DNA from: an uncultured Candidatus Saccharibacteria bacterium
Lineage (GTDB): Bacteria; Patescibacteriota; Doudnabacteria; UBA920
Length of the DNA stretch: 64,000 nt
NCBI GenBank assembly: GCA_964474825.1
Contig: CAYYWQ010000001.1
Location: forward strand, 229,609-293,608
Direction: 5' to 3'
In this document: positions 6,806 through 44,397 of the stretch, piece after piece
How positions within the stretch are numbered: position 1 is the first letter of the stretch
Layout of the letters: every line of letters starts with the position of its first letter
The notes under the pieces: generated by a model
Databases searched by the model: none
Told to the model about the DNA's origin: nothing
Seen by the model: the letters and a program-made list of their open reading frames with translations, nothing else
Position numbers and translations under genes: made by a program

Positions 6806-6825
6806 GTGAATTAACGTAAAAGTTT

Positions 6826-7350
6826 ATGTCAAAAAAATACGGAACCCTGTCGGGAGAATTTTTAAAAATTTTGGGTAAGGCGACCGGATTTTTTACCTGG
6901 CCCATTGAAGGGACTGAAGGTTGGCGCTACGAACAACTATATGGTTCCAGAAGGAATTTTTTGAACACAGTCTCGCATTTAAAAAAGCGAGGGATGGTTA
7001 AATCAGTCAGCCGTCAAGGTAAAAATTTTTTGGAATTAACTTCCAAAGGACAATTGGAACTTCTTTTGCAAAAAGCTGTTGTTAAAACAGTGGCTAAGTG
7101 GGACGGTAAATGGAGAATGGTTATTTTTGACATTCCCGAAGATGCCAGGGACAAAAGGGATACCTTAAGGAGACTTTTAAAAACCAATCAATTTGTAATG
7201 TTGCAGGCCAGCGTGTTTGTTAGTCCCTTTCCTCTTAACAGGGAAGCCGTGGATTATTTAAAGCAAACAGGGCTAATTGCTTTTATAAGATTTGGAAAAA
7301 TTGAAGAACTTGATGATGATCGTGATTTAAGGAAAAAATTCAAGTTGTAA
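6826..7350 (+). CDS. PaaX-like (PaaX_C-type) small transcriptional regulator
   Basis: WDGKWRMVIFDIPEDARDKRDTLRRLLKTNQFVMLQASVFVSPFP resembles PaaX family central/C-terminal region; 174 aa. Confidence 0.45.
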   Translation: MSKKYGTLSGEFLKILGKATGFFTWPIEGTEGWRYEQLYGSRRNFLNTVSHLKKRGMVKSVSRQGKNFLELTSKGQLELLLQKAVVKTVAKWDGKWRMVIFDIPEDARDKRDTLRRLLKTNQFVMLQASVFVSPFPLNREAVDYLKQTGLIAFIRFGKIEELDDDRDLRKKFKL

Positions 7351-7364
7351 ATATTAAGTCATAG

Positions 7365-7388
7365 CCAAACTGACGGCCGTCAGTTTGG
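7365..7388. promoter_or_regulatory. 24-bp perfect palindrome downstream of PaaX-like gene / upstream of VirB6-like operon
   Basis: ccaaactgacgg|ccgtcagtttgg; same 18-bp core as 6768-6805. Confidence 0.55.
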
Positions 7389-7500
7389 TGAGGATGATTG
7401 CGGATTTTAGAATTGTTGGCACTTGGGGAAAAGTGGTAAAATTGACTTTAATCAAAATAAAGCCTGTCAATCACAGGATTTTGTGTTTTATAAATATTTG

Positions 7501-7509
7501 TGGTATAAT
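7501..7509 (+). promoter_or_regulatory. extended -10 promoter element (TGgTATAAT) upstream of 7631 gene
   Basis: tggtataat about 120 nt upstream of the TTG start. Confidence 0.3.
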
Positions 7510-7630
7510 TTTAACATTAGTTGAGGGTAAAAGTACTGTATTTGCTGAAGTTTTAAAACAAGGATTAAGCACTGCAAATACCAAAGAAATTTGTAAAATA
7601 CCACTCTTTTCTTAAACAAATTCCACATTC

Positions 7631-28381: not shown

Positions 28382-29623
28382 CTAGACCGAGTAGGTCCGG
28401 CCGCGGTGCTGTCCGAGAAGGATTTGCACCAGCCGGTGGGCGATCAGTTCGTGGAGCGTGAGCAGTTCACGGTTGGCCGCGGTAACGGCTTCGGCATCGT
28501 GCGGATCGGTAACGCCGGCGCCGCCGGCCTTCAGGGCGTCGGTGGCTTCCTTGATGATCGGGTCAGAGATGACTTCGCCTGCCATCTCCCATAGCGTGAT
28601 GAAGCGGTCCACGGCGCTCGGAAAGCTGACCTTGAAGACGCCGTAGTTGCTGGTGGTGCGTGGCGGTTTGAAATCGAGGTTGAACGGGCCGTTGTAGCCG
28701 TGGCTGCGCAGCAGCACCAGCACGTTCAGCCAGTCGAGCGGATTCACCAGCCCTACCGCGATATCCACATCGTGCTTCAGGCGGTAGCCGTCGTTGATGT
28801 CGAAGTGCCACAGCTTGCCGCACAGGAGTGCGCGAGCCAGCGATGCCCGGGGCGCGGCGCCCCACATCAACTCATGCAGGTACTCGGGGTTGAGCCCTAC
28901 CATCTCCGGATGCGTCAGCAGGCCTGAGGAAATGAAGGCCAGCATCGCGTCGCTGGTCGGAAGCAGGATCTCGGCCTGCGGTTCGAACGGCTTGGCCTCC
29001 ATACAGTGCTTCAGGGTGGGGTTGCCCTTTTCCTTTGCAATCTGGATATCGGCCTCGCAGGCGTGGTTCAGGGCGTCGGCGTACCAGCGAAGGGTCTGTG
29101 TCTCGTCGATCGCGCCCTGGACGTAGTAGCCGAGGGAACCGGGCCAGTAGACGGCGAACTGCGCGCCGAGCTCGTGCCCGATGTGAACCGTATTGGCCAG
29201 CCGGAACTTAGCGTACTCCCTTACATCTGGAGCTTCCGCCGCCGGACTGCCGGCGAACACCGCGTGATAGAACGTGTCCGTGGTGACCATCGAGCACTTG
29301 ACGTCGTGCTTCTTGAGGCATGTCTTGATGTGCTCAATCGCCATCCACTGCCACTCTTTTCCCAGGTGCTCGGTGGGGATAACGTCCGTGTCATGAGTGG
29401 TCCAGTAGCCGATTCCGATTTCGCCGAAATTGCGGATAGCCTCCTCAAATCCCACGGGTCCGCGGGTGGGGGCGTGGAATAGGGCGTCGCCTTCGTAAGC
29501 AGCGGCCCATTGGGGCCCGGAGATAAAGTATTTCCGGCGCGTTTCGGGGGAATAACCACCCCCGCACGCTTCCATGAGCCGATTAATCAGGGATTGCTGT
29601 TCGTTCACAGGGACTGGTTGCAT
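28382..29623 (-). CDS. xylA: xylose isomerase, class I (actinobacterial/Thermus type), in ~62% GC island
   Basis: long collinear similarity to class-I XylA: FHDTDVIP, AIEPKP-like EAKPFEPQ, ILLPT, GLNPE, HFDINDG, exact DFKPPRT; codon GC3 very high against AT-rich flanks. Confidence 0.85.
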   Translation of the reverse strand: MQPVPVNEQQSLINRLMEACGGGYSPETRRKYFISGPQWAAAYEGDALFHAPTRGPVGFEEAIRNFGEIGIGYWTTHDTDVIPTEHLGKEWQWMAIEHIKTCLKKHDVKCSMVTTDTFYHAVFAGSPAAEAPDVREYAKFRLANTVHIGHELGAQFAVYWPGSLGYYVQGAIDETQTLRWYADALNHACEADIQIAKEKGNPTLKHCMEAKPFEPQAEILLPTSDAMLAFISSGLLTHPEMVGLNPEYLHELMWGAAPRASLARALLCGKLWHFDINDGYRLKHDVDIAVGLVNPLDWLNVLVLLRSHGYNGPFNLDFKPPRTTSNYGVFKVSFPSAVDRFITLWEMAGEVISDPIIKEATDALKAGGAGVTDPHDAEAVTAANRELLTLHELIAHRLVQILLGQHRGRTYSV

Positions 29624-35477: not shown

Positions 35478-35680
35478 TTTATTATTCCTTTTATTTCATC
35501 CCGGCTGCTTTTATGGCCTTTCGGGAATGATTAAGATTGTATATTTATTATAGCACTTTTTAGTCTAAGTGGGTCAATAGTAAAATTGGCTTGACATGAT
35601 TTTAAACATTTGTTAAACTACAAATACCGCTTTAGTTAACTAAAGCGGTCAAAGTAAAGTTATAGTGTTAGGAATTTTTT

Positions 35681-36007
35681 ATGGCAGTAACTTGGGACAA
35701 TAAAAAAACTGAAAATTTGCTGCAGGCAGTTTTGTTGCTTGAAAGCTTGGAAGAAGCCAAGCGTTTTTTTCGCGACCTTTTAACAGAAGCCGAGCTGGAA
35801 GAATTTGGTAACCGCTGGCTGGCCGCGCAAATGCTTACGGCCAAAGAGTCTTACACAATAATTCGGGGCAAAACAGGGCTTTCTACAACTACCATTGCGC
35901 GTATTTCTAAATGGCTGCAAAAAGGACGCGGCGGCTACAAGTTGATTTTAAAAAGATTAGGCCAGCATCATACCAACTCCATTCCTATTGGGAAAGGGTT
36001 GCGTTGA
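35681..36007 (+). CDS. TrpR-like / YerC-YecD family DNA-binding protein
   Basis: LTEAELEEFGNRWLAAQML...ESYTIIRGKTGLSTTTIARISKWL helix-turn-helix pattern of TrpR-related family. Confidence 0.5.
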   Translation: MAVTWDNKKTENLLQAVLLLESLEEAKRFFRDLLTEAELEEFGNRWLAAQMLTAKESYTIIRGKTGLSTTTIARISKWLQKGRGGYKLILKRLGQHHTNSIPIGKGLR

Positions 36008-36149
36008 TAATGTTATGGTCCTTATGCTTTAATGCACTAGTGCAGTAATGCAAAGGGCCGAATAAATTTATCCACTTTGCCCGTTCCCAAGAGGAATGGG
36101 TTTTTTGTTTTTCTTGGGACAAATCCAATTACAACTAGGAGAAGGGAAA

Positions 36150-37217
36150 ATGAAAGTTTTATGGCCCAACTTTAAAAAAGGCAATGGACTCATTGTTGCA
36201 ATAGCGCAAGATGCCCGGACTAAAGAAATTCTTATGCAGGGCTTTGCCAGCGAAGAGGCGTTTCGTCTGGCGTTGGCTACCGGCTTCGCGACTTATTTCA
36301 GCAGATCCCGGAATGAGCTTTGGATGAAAGGAGAAACAACCGGCAATAGGCTTAAGCTTGTTGGTCCGCCACTGATTGATTGCGACGGCGACTCAATCAT
36401 TTATTTGGTGGAGCCTCAAGGGCCTCCTTGCCACACGAACCAGAGAAGCTGTTTCTATCGCAATGTGCTTGAAACGGAAAAGGCTTCGTTCTCATCCCCG
36501 GATGAGACGTTGCCAATATTGGAATGTGAAGTCAGCCTGAAAAGGAGCATAGAAATGAGTAAAAGAAAGTTGCAGATTGGAGTAATGGGTAGCGCGTCAG
36601 ACTTGGAGTATAGCGAAGAAGTCGCGCGTTTAGCCGAAGAAGTGGGCAAAGAAGTCGCGCTGGCCGGATGTGTTCTGGTCTTTGGTGCCGAGAAGGACTA
36701 CGACTCTCTTTCGACTGCCGCGGGACGCGGAGCGAGGAGCGTTGGGGGTCTTACCGCGGGAGTGACTTATGGCAAAGGCATAGACGTTTTTGAACAAGCC
36801 GATGTCATTATTACCTGCGGTGCGGAACGCGGCGGACCAAGGGAATCGGCGCTTGTGCTTTCCTGCGATGCCATAATTTGCATTTCAGGCGGCAGCGGCA
36901 CGCTCACGGAAATGCTGGTGGCCTACCAAGCCAATATCCCAATTGTTGCCCTGGTGGGCACCGGCGGCTGGAGCGATAAAATGGCGGGTTCTTATTTTGA
37001 CAAACGCGAGCGCGTCAAAGTAGAGCCGGCAGCCACTGCGAAGGAAGCGGTGGATATTGCCCGGAGGTTGGTTCATCAAAACCAATGTAAACACGAAAAC
37101 GCAGAACAGGTAGAGTTCCTGCGCCGGAGTCAGGTTGGAATGCATCAATTGAGTGAAGTATGGGAAGTTCGCTGCCCTGATTGCGGCAAGCAATATCAGG
37201 ATGCCTTTATAGGGTAG
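36150..37217 (+). CDS. hisI: phosphoribosyl-AMP cyclohydrolase (HisI) domain fused in frame to LOG/TIGR00725-like Rossmann domain; higher-GC island
   Basis: HisI: LIVAIAQD...FSRSRNELWMKGETTGN...DCDGDSIIYLVEPQGPPCHT..SCF; LOG-like: IGVMGSAS...ISGGSGTLTEM; internal strong RBS aaaggag before MSKRKLQ but no stop between domains. Confidence 0.7.
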   Translation: MKVLWPNFKKGNGLIVAIAQDARTKEILMQGFASEEAFRLALATGFATYFSRSRNELWMKGETTGNRLKLVGPPLIDCDGDSIIYLVEPQGPPCHTNQRSCFYRNVLETEKASFSSPDETLPILECEVSLKRSIEMSKRKLQIGVMGSASDLEYSEEVARLAEEVGKEVALAGCVLVFGAEKDYDSLSTAAGRGARSVGGLTAGVTYGKGIDVFEQADVIITCGAERGGPRESALVLSCDAIICISGGSGTLTEMLVAYQANIPIVALVGTGGWSDKMAGSYFDKRERVKVEPAATAKEAVDIARRLVHQNQCKHENAEQVEFLRRSQVGMHQLSEVWEVRCPDCGKQYQDAFIG

Positions 37218-37224
37218 CGAGAGA

Positions 37225-37503
37225 ATGAGCAAAGCAAGGCTCGTGTGGAAAGGCGGGAAAAACGGCGGGCGCTGGATGCGCCCGCTGGGACCGCCGTTTT
37301 GGGACGGTGGCACATGTAAATTTGCCGGGGAAGTTTTGGGGTATACCAGCTTGCCCGGCACGGCAAAAGTTGAAGGAGGTCGGGTGCTTTTTAAAGGGCA
37401 CCTAGATGTTGGGTTTCAAATATTATGTCCATTTGACGAAGTAGCGGCAGTCTTTAATGAAGACGGCAGGCAAATTTATCACTTGGAGCCGGCGGACGAA
37501 TAG
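37225..37503 (+). CDS. hypothetical small protein within higher-GC island
   Basis: ORF only; Gly-rich; no family recognised. Confidence 0.2.
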   Translation: MSKARLVWKGGKNGGRWMRPLGPPFWDGGTCKFAGEVLGYTSLPGTAKVEGGRVLFKGHLDVGFQILCPFDEVAAVFNEDGRQIYHLEPADE

Positions 37504-37614
37504 TCTGCCGGTTTTTATTTTTGTCGAAATTGTGTTATAATTAATTGGTAAAAATATCGAACAGAAATAAAAATTTCATCTTTCGTTTAAAAGTCTGGCG
37601 AAGGAAATCTTGTT

Positions 37615-43788: not shown

Positions 43789-44397
43789 TTACGCCTTACG
43801 CCGCCGCAGCCACAGCAAGCAGCTCGCCCCGCTGCCCATCAGAAGGAGCGAGGACGGCTCGGGCGTTAGCGTTGTTGCCCTTTGCTGGCCTATATAGGGC
43901 AACACATCACCGTTGACGTCGGTGATATTAAGGACGCTAAAAAAAAGCTCGTCCCCAACGTCGTGGTGGGAGGTGCCGGTCCAAAATAGAAAATCTCCCA
44001 AGTTCGGTACCCAGGGGGTAACGATCACCGGCCCAAAGGTTGGACCGTTAAAACCGCCTCCGGAGCTGGTAAGCTCCGCCCAGGGGCCCGGTATTGGAGA
44101 CGTCATTTCAAAATCTGTCTCATACCAGAGCCCGCCCGGCCTGACACCGAACGAACCCACGCCGTAGCCGGTTGGTGTCGGGCCCGTGCCGTCCCAGCCT
44201 TCTTCGATGTAGACCGATCCGAAGATCAGCCAGTCAATCGAAGCCCCGTCCGGCATGCCGTTATTGGTGAGTTTAAAGCTGTAAGAGAACAGTCCTCCGG
44301 CTTGGGGTGTTACGGAGTACTCCAAGGTTAGGGGTTCCGCCCCGGCAAACATCGCCATGGCGAAAATCAGAAAAGCAAGCGCGAGAATGCGCGACAT
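43789..44397 (-). CDS. PEP-CTERM sorting-domain secreted protein (high-GC island)
   Basis: signal peptide; C-terminal TPEP + hydrophobic SSLLLMGSGASCLLWL + RRRKA = PEP-CTERM tripartite motif. Confidence 0.6.
   Translation of the reverse strand: MSRILALAFLIFAMAMFAGAEPLTLEYSVTPQAGGLFSYSFKLTNNGMPDGASIDWLIFGSVYIEEGWDGTGPTPTGYGVGSFGVRPGGLWYETDFEMTSPIPGPWAELTSSGGGFNGPTFGPVIVTPWVPNLGDFLFWTGTSHHDVGDELFFSVLNITDVNGDVLPYIGQQRATTLTPEPSSLLLMGSGASCLLWLRRRKA

Follow-up and report, generated by a model that had tools for sequence, protein, structure and literature searches.

How did a histidine-pathway cyclohydrolase come to run, without a stop codon, into a LOG-like domain, and what would the two halves of such a protein have in common? 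The question is raised by a gene of an uncultured Candidatus Saccharibacteria bacterium (Doudnabacteria in the GTDB lineage), located at 36150-37217 of the 64-kb stretch of DNA analysed here (the window; all coordinates are positions in it, on the + strand unless stated). The original prediction had described a HisI-LOG-like fusion born by loss of a stop codon, lying with a small Gly-rich open reading frame (ORF) on a GC-rich island, and a HisI without pathway context. The explanation that we hold to be moderately probable overall is a recent fusion of hisI with a gene of the SLOG cluster4 family, arising from a neighbourhood in which such genes are recurrently linked to his genes, with both halves acting on common phosphoribosyl nucleotides.

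The ORF scan gives an open frame without interruption from 36096 to 37217. Its first ATG (36096) falls within a terminator hairpin, and the realistic start appears to be ATG 36150, which is preceded in the sequence by a Shine-Dalgarno motif (AGGAG, 36137-36141) and an 8-nt spacer (whole start signal, 36137-36152) and gives a protein of 355 aa. This start coincides with that of the database protein P0001 and with the start (MKVL(W/R)PNF) of the phosphoribosyl-AMP cyclohydrolase (PRA-CH) of L012, a locus of a Ca. Doudnabacteria genome. P0001, recorded from an NCBI contig of 1,211,450 bp and from a Logan assembly, is identical to the 355-aa product. The single in-frame ORF of the original prediction is therefore real, being free of stops over 355 aa and the same in the NCBI and the separate Logan assembly. 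From its N- to its C-terminus the protein has a PRA-CH/HisI domain, a tail of 24 residues with a linker of 5, an SLOG-cluster4/TIGR00725 domain and a Cys/His-containing beta tail.

On the evidence of its profile, structure and alignment matches, the N-terminal domain (aa 1-111; 36150-36482) is a bona fide HisI-type cyclohydrolase with predicted phosphoribosyl-AMP (PR-AMP) cyclohydrolase activity. In searches of Pfam and NCBIfam profiles, each judged against its curated cutoff, residues 29-103 match PF01502 (PRA-CH) over profile positions 1-74 of 74 (E=3e-25, 88.3 bits, cutoff 27). The NCBIfam equivalog cutoffs are missed for both HisI (NF000768, 116.0 vs 126 bits) and HisIE (NF002747, 118.4 vs 187). 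The solved HisI of M. thermautotrophicus (1ZPS) is matched with E=2e-26, in an alignment that spans the whole N-terminal 111 residues. The DCDGD motif is present, and C78, D81, C94, H95 and C101 are invariant in the PRA-CH alignment (A3), 1ZPS included; with D77 and D79 also present, the metal-binding and catalytic set of three Cys, one His and D-x-D-x-D is complete. The 1ZPS match and the DCDGD and Cys/His/Cys positions bear out that this is HisI and not another cyclohydrolase fold. Outside the module described below, the closest relatives are ordinary HisI and HisIE proteins of Verrucomicrobia and Bathyarchaeota (54-60% identity), the nearest being P0121, from a normal free-living Verrucomicrobiae genome. 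The HisI half is 59% identical to its unfused orthologue in L012, and its 405 nt contain neither frameshift nor stop. When the window is compared with L012, nonsynonymous divergence (dN) amounts to 0.31 in PRA-CH and to 0.24 in both SLOG and SecA, and at the level of its sequence the HisI half is not visibly decayed. The domain is followed by the C-terminal extension of the HisI subfamily (aa 112-130, ...LPILECEVSL; 36483-36539), which has become part of the linker and recurs as ...LPIVDWEVNL in L012 and as ...LPTQECEV in P0121, the Verrucomicrobiae HisI.

The second domain (aa 136-308; 36555-37073) is a Rossmannoid domain of the SLOG cluster4/TIGR00725 type. PF18306 (LDcluster4/SLOG cluster4) is matched by residues 140-299 over profile positions 1-149 of 151 (E=6e-24, 84.8 bits, cutoff 26.3), whereas TIGR00725 remains under its cutoff (71.1 vs 106.9) and all LOG profiles fail (PF03641, 16.8 vs 27; TIGR00730, 25.1 vs 96; cytokinin-LOG equivalog, 23.7 vs 300). 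The protein is thus a member of PF01502 and PF18306, and neither a LOG proper nor a HisIE, having no match to PF01503 (phosphoribosyl-ATP pyrophosphohydrolase, PRA-PH). The motif ISGGSGTLTEM is confirmed, and its SGGSGTLTE aligns to PGGIGTLEE of LOG proteins with the leading Pro replaced by Ser. The Arg of GPRE aligns to that of ERK in 3QUA and 7W2I and the Glu of GGSGTLTE to the catalytic Glu of LOG, both residues being invariant across the family (alignments A1 and A5). An AlphaFold 2 model of residues 136-355, built with 76 family sequences in the alignment, reached a mean predicted local distance difference test (pLDDT) score of 89. In Foldseek its top match is Thermotoga maritima TM1055 (1RCU; TM-score 0.86, root-mean-square deviation 2.2 Å), accompanied by the molybdenum cofactor (MoCo) carriers 6Y01 and 2IZ5 (0.86-0.87), and LOG enzymes score 0.64-0.71; sequence comparison ranks the solved relatives in the same order, TM1055, then MoCo carriers, then LOG enzymes. 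The relation of this domain to LOG proteins had been foreseen, and PF18306 and the structure matches place it more precisely in the SLOG cluster4/TIGR00725 family. Around 38% of the SLOG positions are invariant or nearly so from bacteria to archaea, among them numerous charged or polar residues (E46, K47, D48, D50, R92, R96, E97, D105, E119, D149, R151). The protein ends in a clade-specific Cys/His-rich tail (aa 309-355, HQNQCKH...CPDCGK...FIG; 37074-37217 with the stop codon), whose CxH...CxxC pattern is restricted to the six closest relatives (P0001-P0006). In the model the tail forms three beta-strands (residues 184-217 of the SLOG construct, pLDDT 70-80) and may bind zinc.

The origin of the fusion can be read from its junction (36540-36554). 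In L012, which shares the surrounding gene order (M48-LemA ... SecA-GatC-GatA), HisG, a PRA-CH of 130 aa and an SLOG protein of 196 aa are encoded by separate genes, with a gap of 12 nt between hisI and the SLOG gene. The two loci align there with zero gaps (L012 4698-4840), CTT TAA GGA GAA AAA CAC ATG in L012 facing CTG AAA AGG AGC ATA GAA ATG in the window: AAA (36540-36542) occupies the place of the ancestral TAA, and the old 12-nt spacer now encodes the linker K-R-S-I-E. Since free-standing SLOG proteins begin, with M(S/K)RK(L/I)QIGVMGS, precisely at Met136 of the window protein, free-standing PRA-CH genes exist (in L012, L059 and L089) and the fused protein forms a one-member cluster, these sequence comparisons show the split arrangement to be the ancestral state. 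The hisI stop TAA became AAA by a T-to-A substitution, and because the 12-nt spacer is a multiple of three, translation now proceeds through the old Shine-Dalgarno sequence into the SLOG frame. The alignment to the unfused syntenic locus bears out the proposed stop loss and shows an origin that took one stop-codon substitution between adjacent, co-transcribed ancestral genes. The internal ribosome-binding site noticed before the second domain is indeed there (AAAGGAG at 36541-36547, then 7 nt, then ATG 36555) and is, judging from this alignment, the former ribosome-binding site of the SLOG gene. Both it and ATG 36555 are intact, and the internal start may yield an SLOG protein of 220 aa in addition to the 355-aa fusion. 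The locus thus offers a clean snapshot of the birth of a bifunctional gene, with one stop substitution, an in-frame 12-nt spacer, a fossil ribosome-binding site and an unfused orthologous locus for comparison.

Fused and split states differ by a single base, and the fused allele comes from one organism alone; a scan of Joint Genome Institute (JGI) metagenome contigs for the exact junction pattern, with the critical base left free, gave zero matches. A sequencing or assembly artefact, in which the true codon at 36540-36542 would be TAA and the two genes separate as in L012, is nevertheless highly improbable in our judgement. Over more than 5 kb the sequence is identical in two assemblies, the NCBI 1.21-Mb contig and the independent Logan assembly of SRR14271372, the latter (locus L004) matching the window at 100% over 5,068 bp with the junction included; moreover, consensus substitution errors are rare at normal coverage, and the neighbouring codons have diverged normally. 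A second metagenome scan, for PRA-CH loci of the module type, returned six short contigs, mostly with ordinary HisI beside HisA/F or HisE. In an exhaustive HMMER search over 1.84 billion protein representatives, no other two-domain PRA-CH+SLOG protein was among the top 150. The only other protein found to combine the two domains is P0008, which must have an independent origin because its domains stand in the opposite order (SLOG~PRA-CH). The fusion is therefore a recent, lineage-specific and rare variant, one of two known fusions of PRA-CH and SLOG.

More telling than the fusion is the company kept by SLOG genes elsewhere. A scan for the SLOG domain with one genome per species found 370 relatives, and the 80 loci kept are almost exclusively from Patescibacteria or DPANN archaea. 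Around 83 loci, every ORF within +/-8 kb was clustered without preselection and the cluster representatives were annotated with Pfam. The closest loci share with the window the order M48 peptidase (-), LemA (-), YerC/TrpR-like (+), SLOG (+), ..., SecA, GatC-GatA-GatB, and only the middle varies: SLOG alone in L005 and L006, a PfkB~SLOG fusion followed by HisG in L007-L009, SLOG then HisG in L016, and HisG, PRA-CH (130 aa) and SLOG (196 aa) in L012. HisG occurs in 10 of the 83 loci, two of them with a HisG~HisE fusion; PRA-CH in six, the window included, and in five of these directly adjacent or fused to SLOG; HisE in four (L017, L074, L026 and L089); HisA and the IGPD encoded by hisB in two each. 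Adjacency of PRA-CH and SLOG is direct in L012, L089, L017 and L074. In two Woesearchaeota (L017, 8552-11189; L074, 8549-11170) the cluster is compact: SLOG-HisA~HisI-HisG~HisE-IGPD are all read the same way and stand only a few nt apart; there the HisA~PRA-CH fusion measures 357 aa and the HisG~PRA-PH fusion 323-328 aa. The HisG~HisE fusion was not found in the catalogues of his fusions covered here. In L089 (Saccharibacteria UBA1944) the order is HisG-HisE-(second SLOG paralog)-HisI-SLOG. This paralog is divergent (6814-7566 on the - strand, 251 aa) and matches PF18306 at E=1e-5, just under the gathering score; the same locus holds HisRS, two HAD-like genes and a PRTase-like (phosphoribosyltransferase-like) gene. 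A separate contig carrying P0009 has the order TrpR-like, SLOG, HisG, PRA-CH, and in P0005 a PfkB~SLOG fusion is followed by HisG. The HisG proteins of the module form a small divergent clade of only 19 members. In L090 a 453-aa PRA-CH~HisG~HisG_C fusion (P0250, 3142-4503) comes directly after a TrpR/YerC-like gene; genes for a RibD-like deaminase/reductase and a flavodoxin-like protein come next, and the 7.5-kb contig carries no SLOG. In all, four independent patterns of fusion or adjacency tie SLOG cluster4 to HisG and HisI.

The partners of SLOG extend beyond his genes. The commonest is a very divergent type-I PRTase, present in 39 of the 83 loci, with 26 copies less than 300 bp from SLOG; next come the YerC/TrpR-like helix-turn-helix (HTH) gene (28), HisRS (19), aspartoacylase/AstE-like (13), HAD (12) and PfkB (11) genes. 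Only the loop VVLVDDVIFNGTQ, which binds phosphoribosyl pyrophosphate (PRPP), is recognisable in the PRTase-like protein of about 320 aa (e.g. L042, 8537-9601), which has weak matches to PRTase-CE and Pribosyltran and no solved relative. Among the top 120 SLOG homologues there are 23 AstE-like fusions, four to PfkB and one to HAD. Together these partners mark the SLOG domain as a hub of phosphoribosyl and nucleotide enzymes. In L026 (768-4874) HisE-HisG lies between two HisRS-like genes (444 and 481 aa), next to PRTase-like, SLOG and AstE-like genes; one of the two HisRS-like genes could be a HisZ-like regulatory paralog. The original claim that HisI has no pathway context accordingly fails for the clade, where hisG, hisE and hisA recur beside SLOG, and seemingly stands for the genome of the window.

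From these associations we infer that both halves would work on one small group of nucleotides, either phosphoribosylated adenine or AICAR-type (AICAR, 5-aminoimidazole-4-carboxamide ribonucleotide). HisI would open the N1-C6 bond of N1-(5-phosphoribosyl)-AMP to give ProFAR (phosphoribosylformimino-AICAR ribonucleotide), and the SLOG half probably binds a phosphoribosylated adenine or AICAR-type nucleotide and would free ribose-5-phosphate by hydrolysing an N-ribosyl bond. In such a module the chemistry of HisG, HisE and HisI would be used for the interconversion of nucleotides and ribose phosphate, for example from ATP to AICAR/IMP-type (inosine monophosphate-type) nucleotides plus ribose-5-phosphate, and not for histidine. 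ProFAR is stable and decays slowly to AICAR; an enzyme that would free ribose-5-phosphate from it has been proposed to exist, yet none has ever been identified (PMC3485032). By analogy, a LOG-like phosphoribohydrolase is a chemically natural candidate for this hydrolysis. That SLOG cluster4 is the postulated hydrolase of the HisG/HisE/HisI product, the four proteins forming a shunt of the histidine pathway, is nonetheless a decidedly unlikely version of the proposal. Such a shunt would convert adenine nucleotides into AICAR/IMP-type purines, ribose-5-phosphate and ammonia, a route of purine interconversion and ribose salvage specific to ultra-small Patescibacteria and DPANN lacking de novo purine synthesis. 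PfkB, the aspartoacylase-like protein (succinylo-AICAR, SAICAR, is an N-acyl-aspartate), the HAD phosphatase and the divergent PRTase could all act on aminoimidazole-carboxamide ribotides, and the window fusion would be a channelled HisI-hydrolase.

Several observations weigh against a common catalytic role of the two halves. No biochemistry for any SLOG-cluster4/TIGR00725 protein emerged from the literature search. The fold is nearer to the non-catalytic MoCo carriers than to LOG enzymes, and since the carriers keep the identical Arg and Glu, these two residues do not establish a hydrolase activity and have no power to separate an enzyme from a binding protein. SLOG might instead be a carrier or sensor that, like the MoCo carriers, binds a labile phosphorylated metabolite (PRPP, phosphoribosyl-ATP (PR-ATP), PR-AMP, ProFAR or a nucleotide signal) and passes it to partner enzymes or regulates them, possibly informing the YerC/TrpR-like repressor. 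It would be in keeping with this that MoCo carrier/binding proteins and TM1055 are the best structural matches (TM-score 0.86-0.87, deviation 2.2-2.6 Å), that a small HTH regulator gene lies beside SLOG in the 28 loci counted above, and that SLOG is promiscuously fused to kinase, hydrolase, phosphatase and cyclohydrolase domains. In other systems, ThsA and TRPM among them, SLOG domains are reported to sense nucleotides. However, the large share of near-invariant positions, many of them charged or polar, suggests an elaborate catalytic site, and the LOG catalytic dyad is kept; we regard a carrier or sensor as possible, though somewhat doubtful.

The shared chemistry that we favour is also weakened by the distribution of his genes: about 85% of the SLOG loci have none within +/-8 kb, so the his link cannot be the only role of the family, and the hisA and hisB (IGPD) genes of the two Woesearchaeota clusters resemble real histidine synthesis and not a shunt. 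Another explanation is that the module belongs to ordinary histidine biosynthesis, with SLOG an accessory or missing-step component in some Patescibacteria and DPANN and the fusion akin to HisIE. SLOG could, for instance, stand in non-orthologously for HisE or histidinol-phosphate phosphatase, or serve HisG as a regulatory or carrier subunit. Besides the gene order of the Woesearchaeota clusters, the HisRS neighbour in 19 loci and the absence of HisE nearby in six of the 10 HisG-bearing loci would fit, and his genes are known to fuse readily (PMC1963479; PMC11237513). In contrast, the loci without his genes carry PRTase-like, PfkB, HAD or AstE-like partners instead, and no hisF, hisH, hisC or hisD was found within +/-8 kb of the loci annotated in detail. 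Patescibacteria and DPANN lineages are described as lacking amino-acid and nucleotide biosynthesis. A role in ordinary histidine synthesis seems rather unlikely to us, and SLOG as a simple replacement for HisE is disfavoured in particular, HisE and SLOG co-occurring in the four HisE-bearing loci.

Finally, the genome itself appears to offer little for the HisI half to work on. Within the window, which covers 64 kb of the roughly 1.2-Mb genome, tblastn found no match to HisG, HisE, HisA, IGPD, PRTase-like, PfkB, AstE-like, HAD or HisRS proteins, and the statement that no other histidine genes lie nearby holds over this stretch. None of the 19 proteins of the HisG clade could be traced to this genome, although relatives at 49-58% identity were recovered, which is an indirect and weak negative. 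With no hisG found, the HisI half seems to be without an evident source of substrate. The lineage has probably lost hisG, its hisI surviving solely as the first half of the fusion; in L005 and L006 hisG and hisI are both gone and SLOG remains. The HisI half may act on scavenged substrate or be becoming redundant, and the fusion may be selectively neutral. The stop mutation would then have tethered two non-cooperating proteins by accident; once hisG was gone, the HisI half would have become a functionless passenger, still intact for no other reason than the recency of the event, with SLOG supplied from the internal start or within the fusion. The singleton status of the fusion, the persistence of SLOG in the two sister loci and the intact internal Shine-Dalgarno sequence and ATG all suit this account. 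On the other side, the catalytic residues of HisI are complete over 405 nt without lesion, its dN is only slightly above that of SecA, and the independent reverse-order fusion P0008, together with the direct adjacency in L012, L089, L017 and L074, indicates a functional partnership in the clade. We consider a neutral accident a possibility, but not a strong one.

Set against known systems, the HisI half keeps the motifs of HisI and HisIE, and what is new is its partner: HisIE and HIS4 fusions join it to HisE (PRA-PH) or HisD, the window protein to SLOG cluster4 (PF18306). LOG and PpnN/YgdH (PF03641, TIGR00730) share with the second half the Rossmannoid SLOG fold, the GGxGTxxE-type motif and the upstream Arg, and the presumed ligands are, like LOG substrates, N-substituted adenine ribotides; the window protein nevertheless belongs to the separate clade PF18306. 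TM1055 is the best match in sequence (E=4e-13) as well as in structure, whereas the Patescibacteria/DPANN subgroup shares only some 26% of its residues with it and scores below the TIGR00725 cutoff, and the sub-clade of the window adds the Cys/His beta tail. The MoCo carriers of Chlamydomonas (MCP, 2IZ5) and Rippkaea (6Y01) resemble the SLOG half in fold (deviation about 2.5 Å), in sequence (26-30% identity) and in the Gly-rich phosphate-binding motif, but no family of MoCo synthesis or molybdoenzymes is among the recurrent neighbours of the 83 loci, whose partners are phosphoribosyl and nucleotide enzymes. As in the catalogued his fusions, neighbouring genes have become one ORF, with the difference that SLOG is not a recognised histidine enzyme. 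The HisI~SLOG architecture is absent from the 2007 catalogue of his fusions (hisA/F, hisIE, hisHF, hisNB, hisIED; PMC1963479) and from the 2024 survey of archaeal fusions, which reports HisA/F~HisIE in DPANN (PMC11237513), as far as these were covered. The literature search found nothing joining TIGR00725/SLOG cluster4 to histidine genes, the paper defining the SLOG clades (Burroughs et al. 2015) being outside its coverage. The his-SLOG module thus appears to be undescribed so far. A stop-loss fusion between known families is ordinary, and the module is the more interesting part: the recurrent link of SLOG to HisG, HisE, HisI and HisA is a specific and testable clue to what this very highly conserved, uncharacterised protein does in ultra-small bacteria and archaea, of which at least 370 reference species have it. 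The link also hints that PR-ATP, PR-AMP or ProFAR may be put to a non-canonical use. Even if the function proves ordinary, the reading of the locus as an orphan HisI on a GC island is corrected.

The GC content of the fusion gene is raised, though slightly less than the 53-55% first given: 51.6% (SLOG part 53.8%, PRA-CH part 47.9%). The mean of the 55 window genes is 43.3 +/- 5.1%, and the fusion gene ranks third among them. SLOG and HisG genes lie 10-19 GC points above their surroundings in every relative (56% vs 37% in L006). A recent horizontally acquired island is rejected on these grounds, the synteny being conserved and the elevation shared by all relatives. SLOG-cluster4 proteins of Patescibacteria and DPANN archaea are 60-80% identical (L005-L089, compared with window 36555-37073); this high identity and the elevated GC together point to either very strong constraint or repeated inter-domain transfer.

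Upstream of the fusion lies a YerC/YecD-type TrpR-like HTH gene of 108 aa (35681-36007), matching Trp_repressor in Pfam (2.4e-18) and TIGR02531 yecD_yerC in NCBIfam (5e-20, above cutoff). Its homologues are directly 5' of the SLOG gene in the 28 loci counted above and 5' of PRA-CH~HisG in L090. Between the two genes the terminator scan places an intrinsic terminator (hairpin 36079-36101 with a 9-bp stem of which 5 pairs are GC, followed by a T-run; whole element 36079-36112). The terminator said to precede the region therefore exists; it does not mark the boundary of an island, as it belongs to the yerC/trpR-like gene and a hairpin with T-run stands at the matching position in L005, L006 and L007, where the remainder of the leader is not conserved. 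A riboswitch or attenuator in the 140-nt leader (36008-36149) was considered and rejected, only the terminator hairpin being kept in position and the leaders of L005 and L006 being unrelated; Rfam gave nothing at gathering thresholds and, in a relaxed search, one sub-threshold miRNA model. No sigma-70-like promoter is predicted between this terminator and the fusion start (36102-36149), and the sole good promoter-like site is upstream of the yerC-like gene (35591-35619). Transcription of the fusion may for this reason depend on read-through of the terminator from the yerC-like promoter.

Downstream, an ORF of 92 aa with a Gly-rich N-terminus (37225-37503) starts 7 nt past the fusion stop. The small Gly-rich ORF of the original prediction is real and conserved: an ORF of 84 aa located 4 nt past the SLOG stop in L005 is homologous (tblastx summed E=3e-23), the alignment taking in the N-terminus KAR(L/V)VWK. 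It has no Pfam or NCBIfam match. Neither this ORF nor the spacer between the fusion and secA is a remnant of HisG, having no similarity to HisG or to any neighbour protein. The unit of fusion gene and small ORF is closed by a second intrinsic terminator with a 13-bp stem and a T-run (hairpin 37485-37515, element 37485-37525). Just 5' of secA, a partly palindromic, AT-rich element of about 62 nt (37512-37573) is 76-81% conserved in L005, L006 and L007 (blastn) within DNA that is not conserved. It holds a TTGTCG...TATAAT-like promoter and may be an operator.

Elsewhere in the window, a gene on the - strand (28382-29623) encodes a xylose-isomerase-like TIM-barrel protein of 413 aa (PF01261). At 61.7% GC overall and 80% at third codon positions, it departs further in composition from the window than any other of the 55 genes, and by this measure horizontal acquisition is far more plausible for it than for the fusion gene. 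In addition, a protein of 202 aa encoded at 43789-44397 (- strand; GC 58%) carries a C-terminal PEP-CTERM sorting motif, which looks unusual for a Patescibacteria-like genome.

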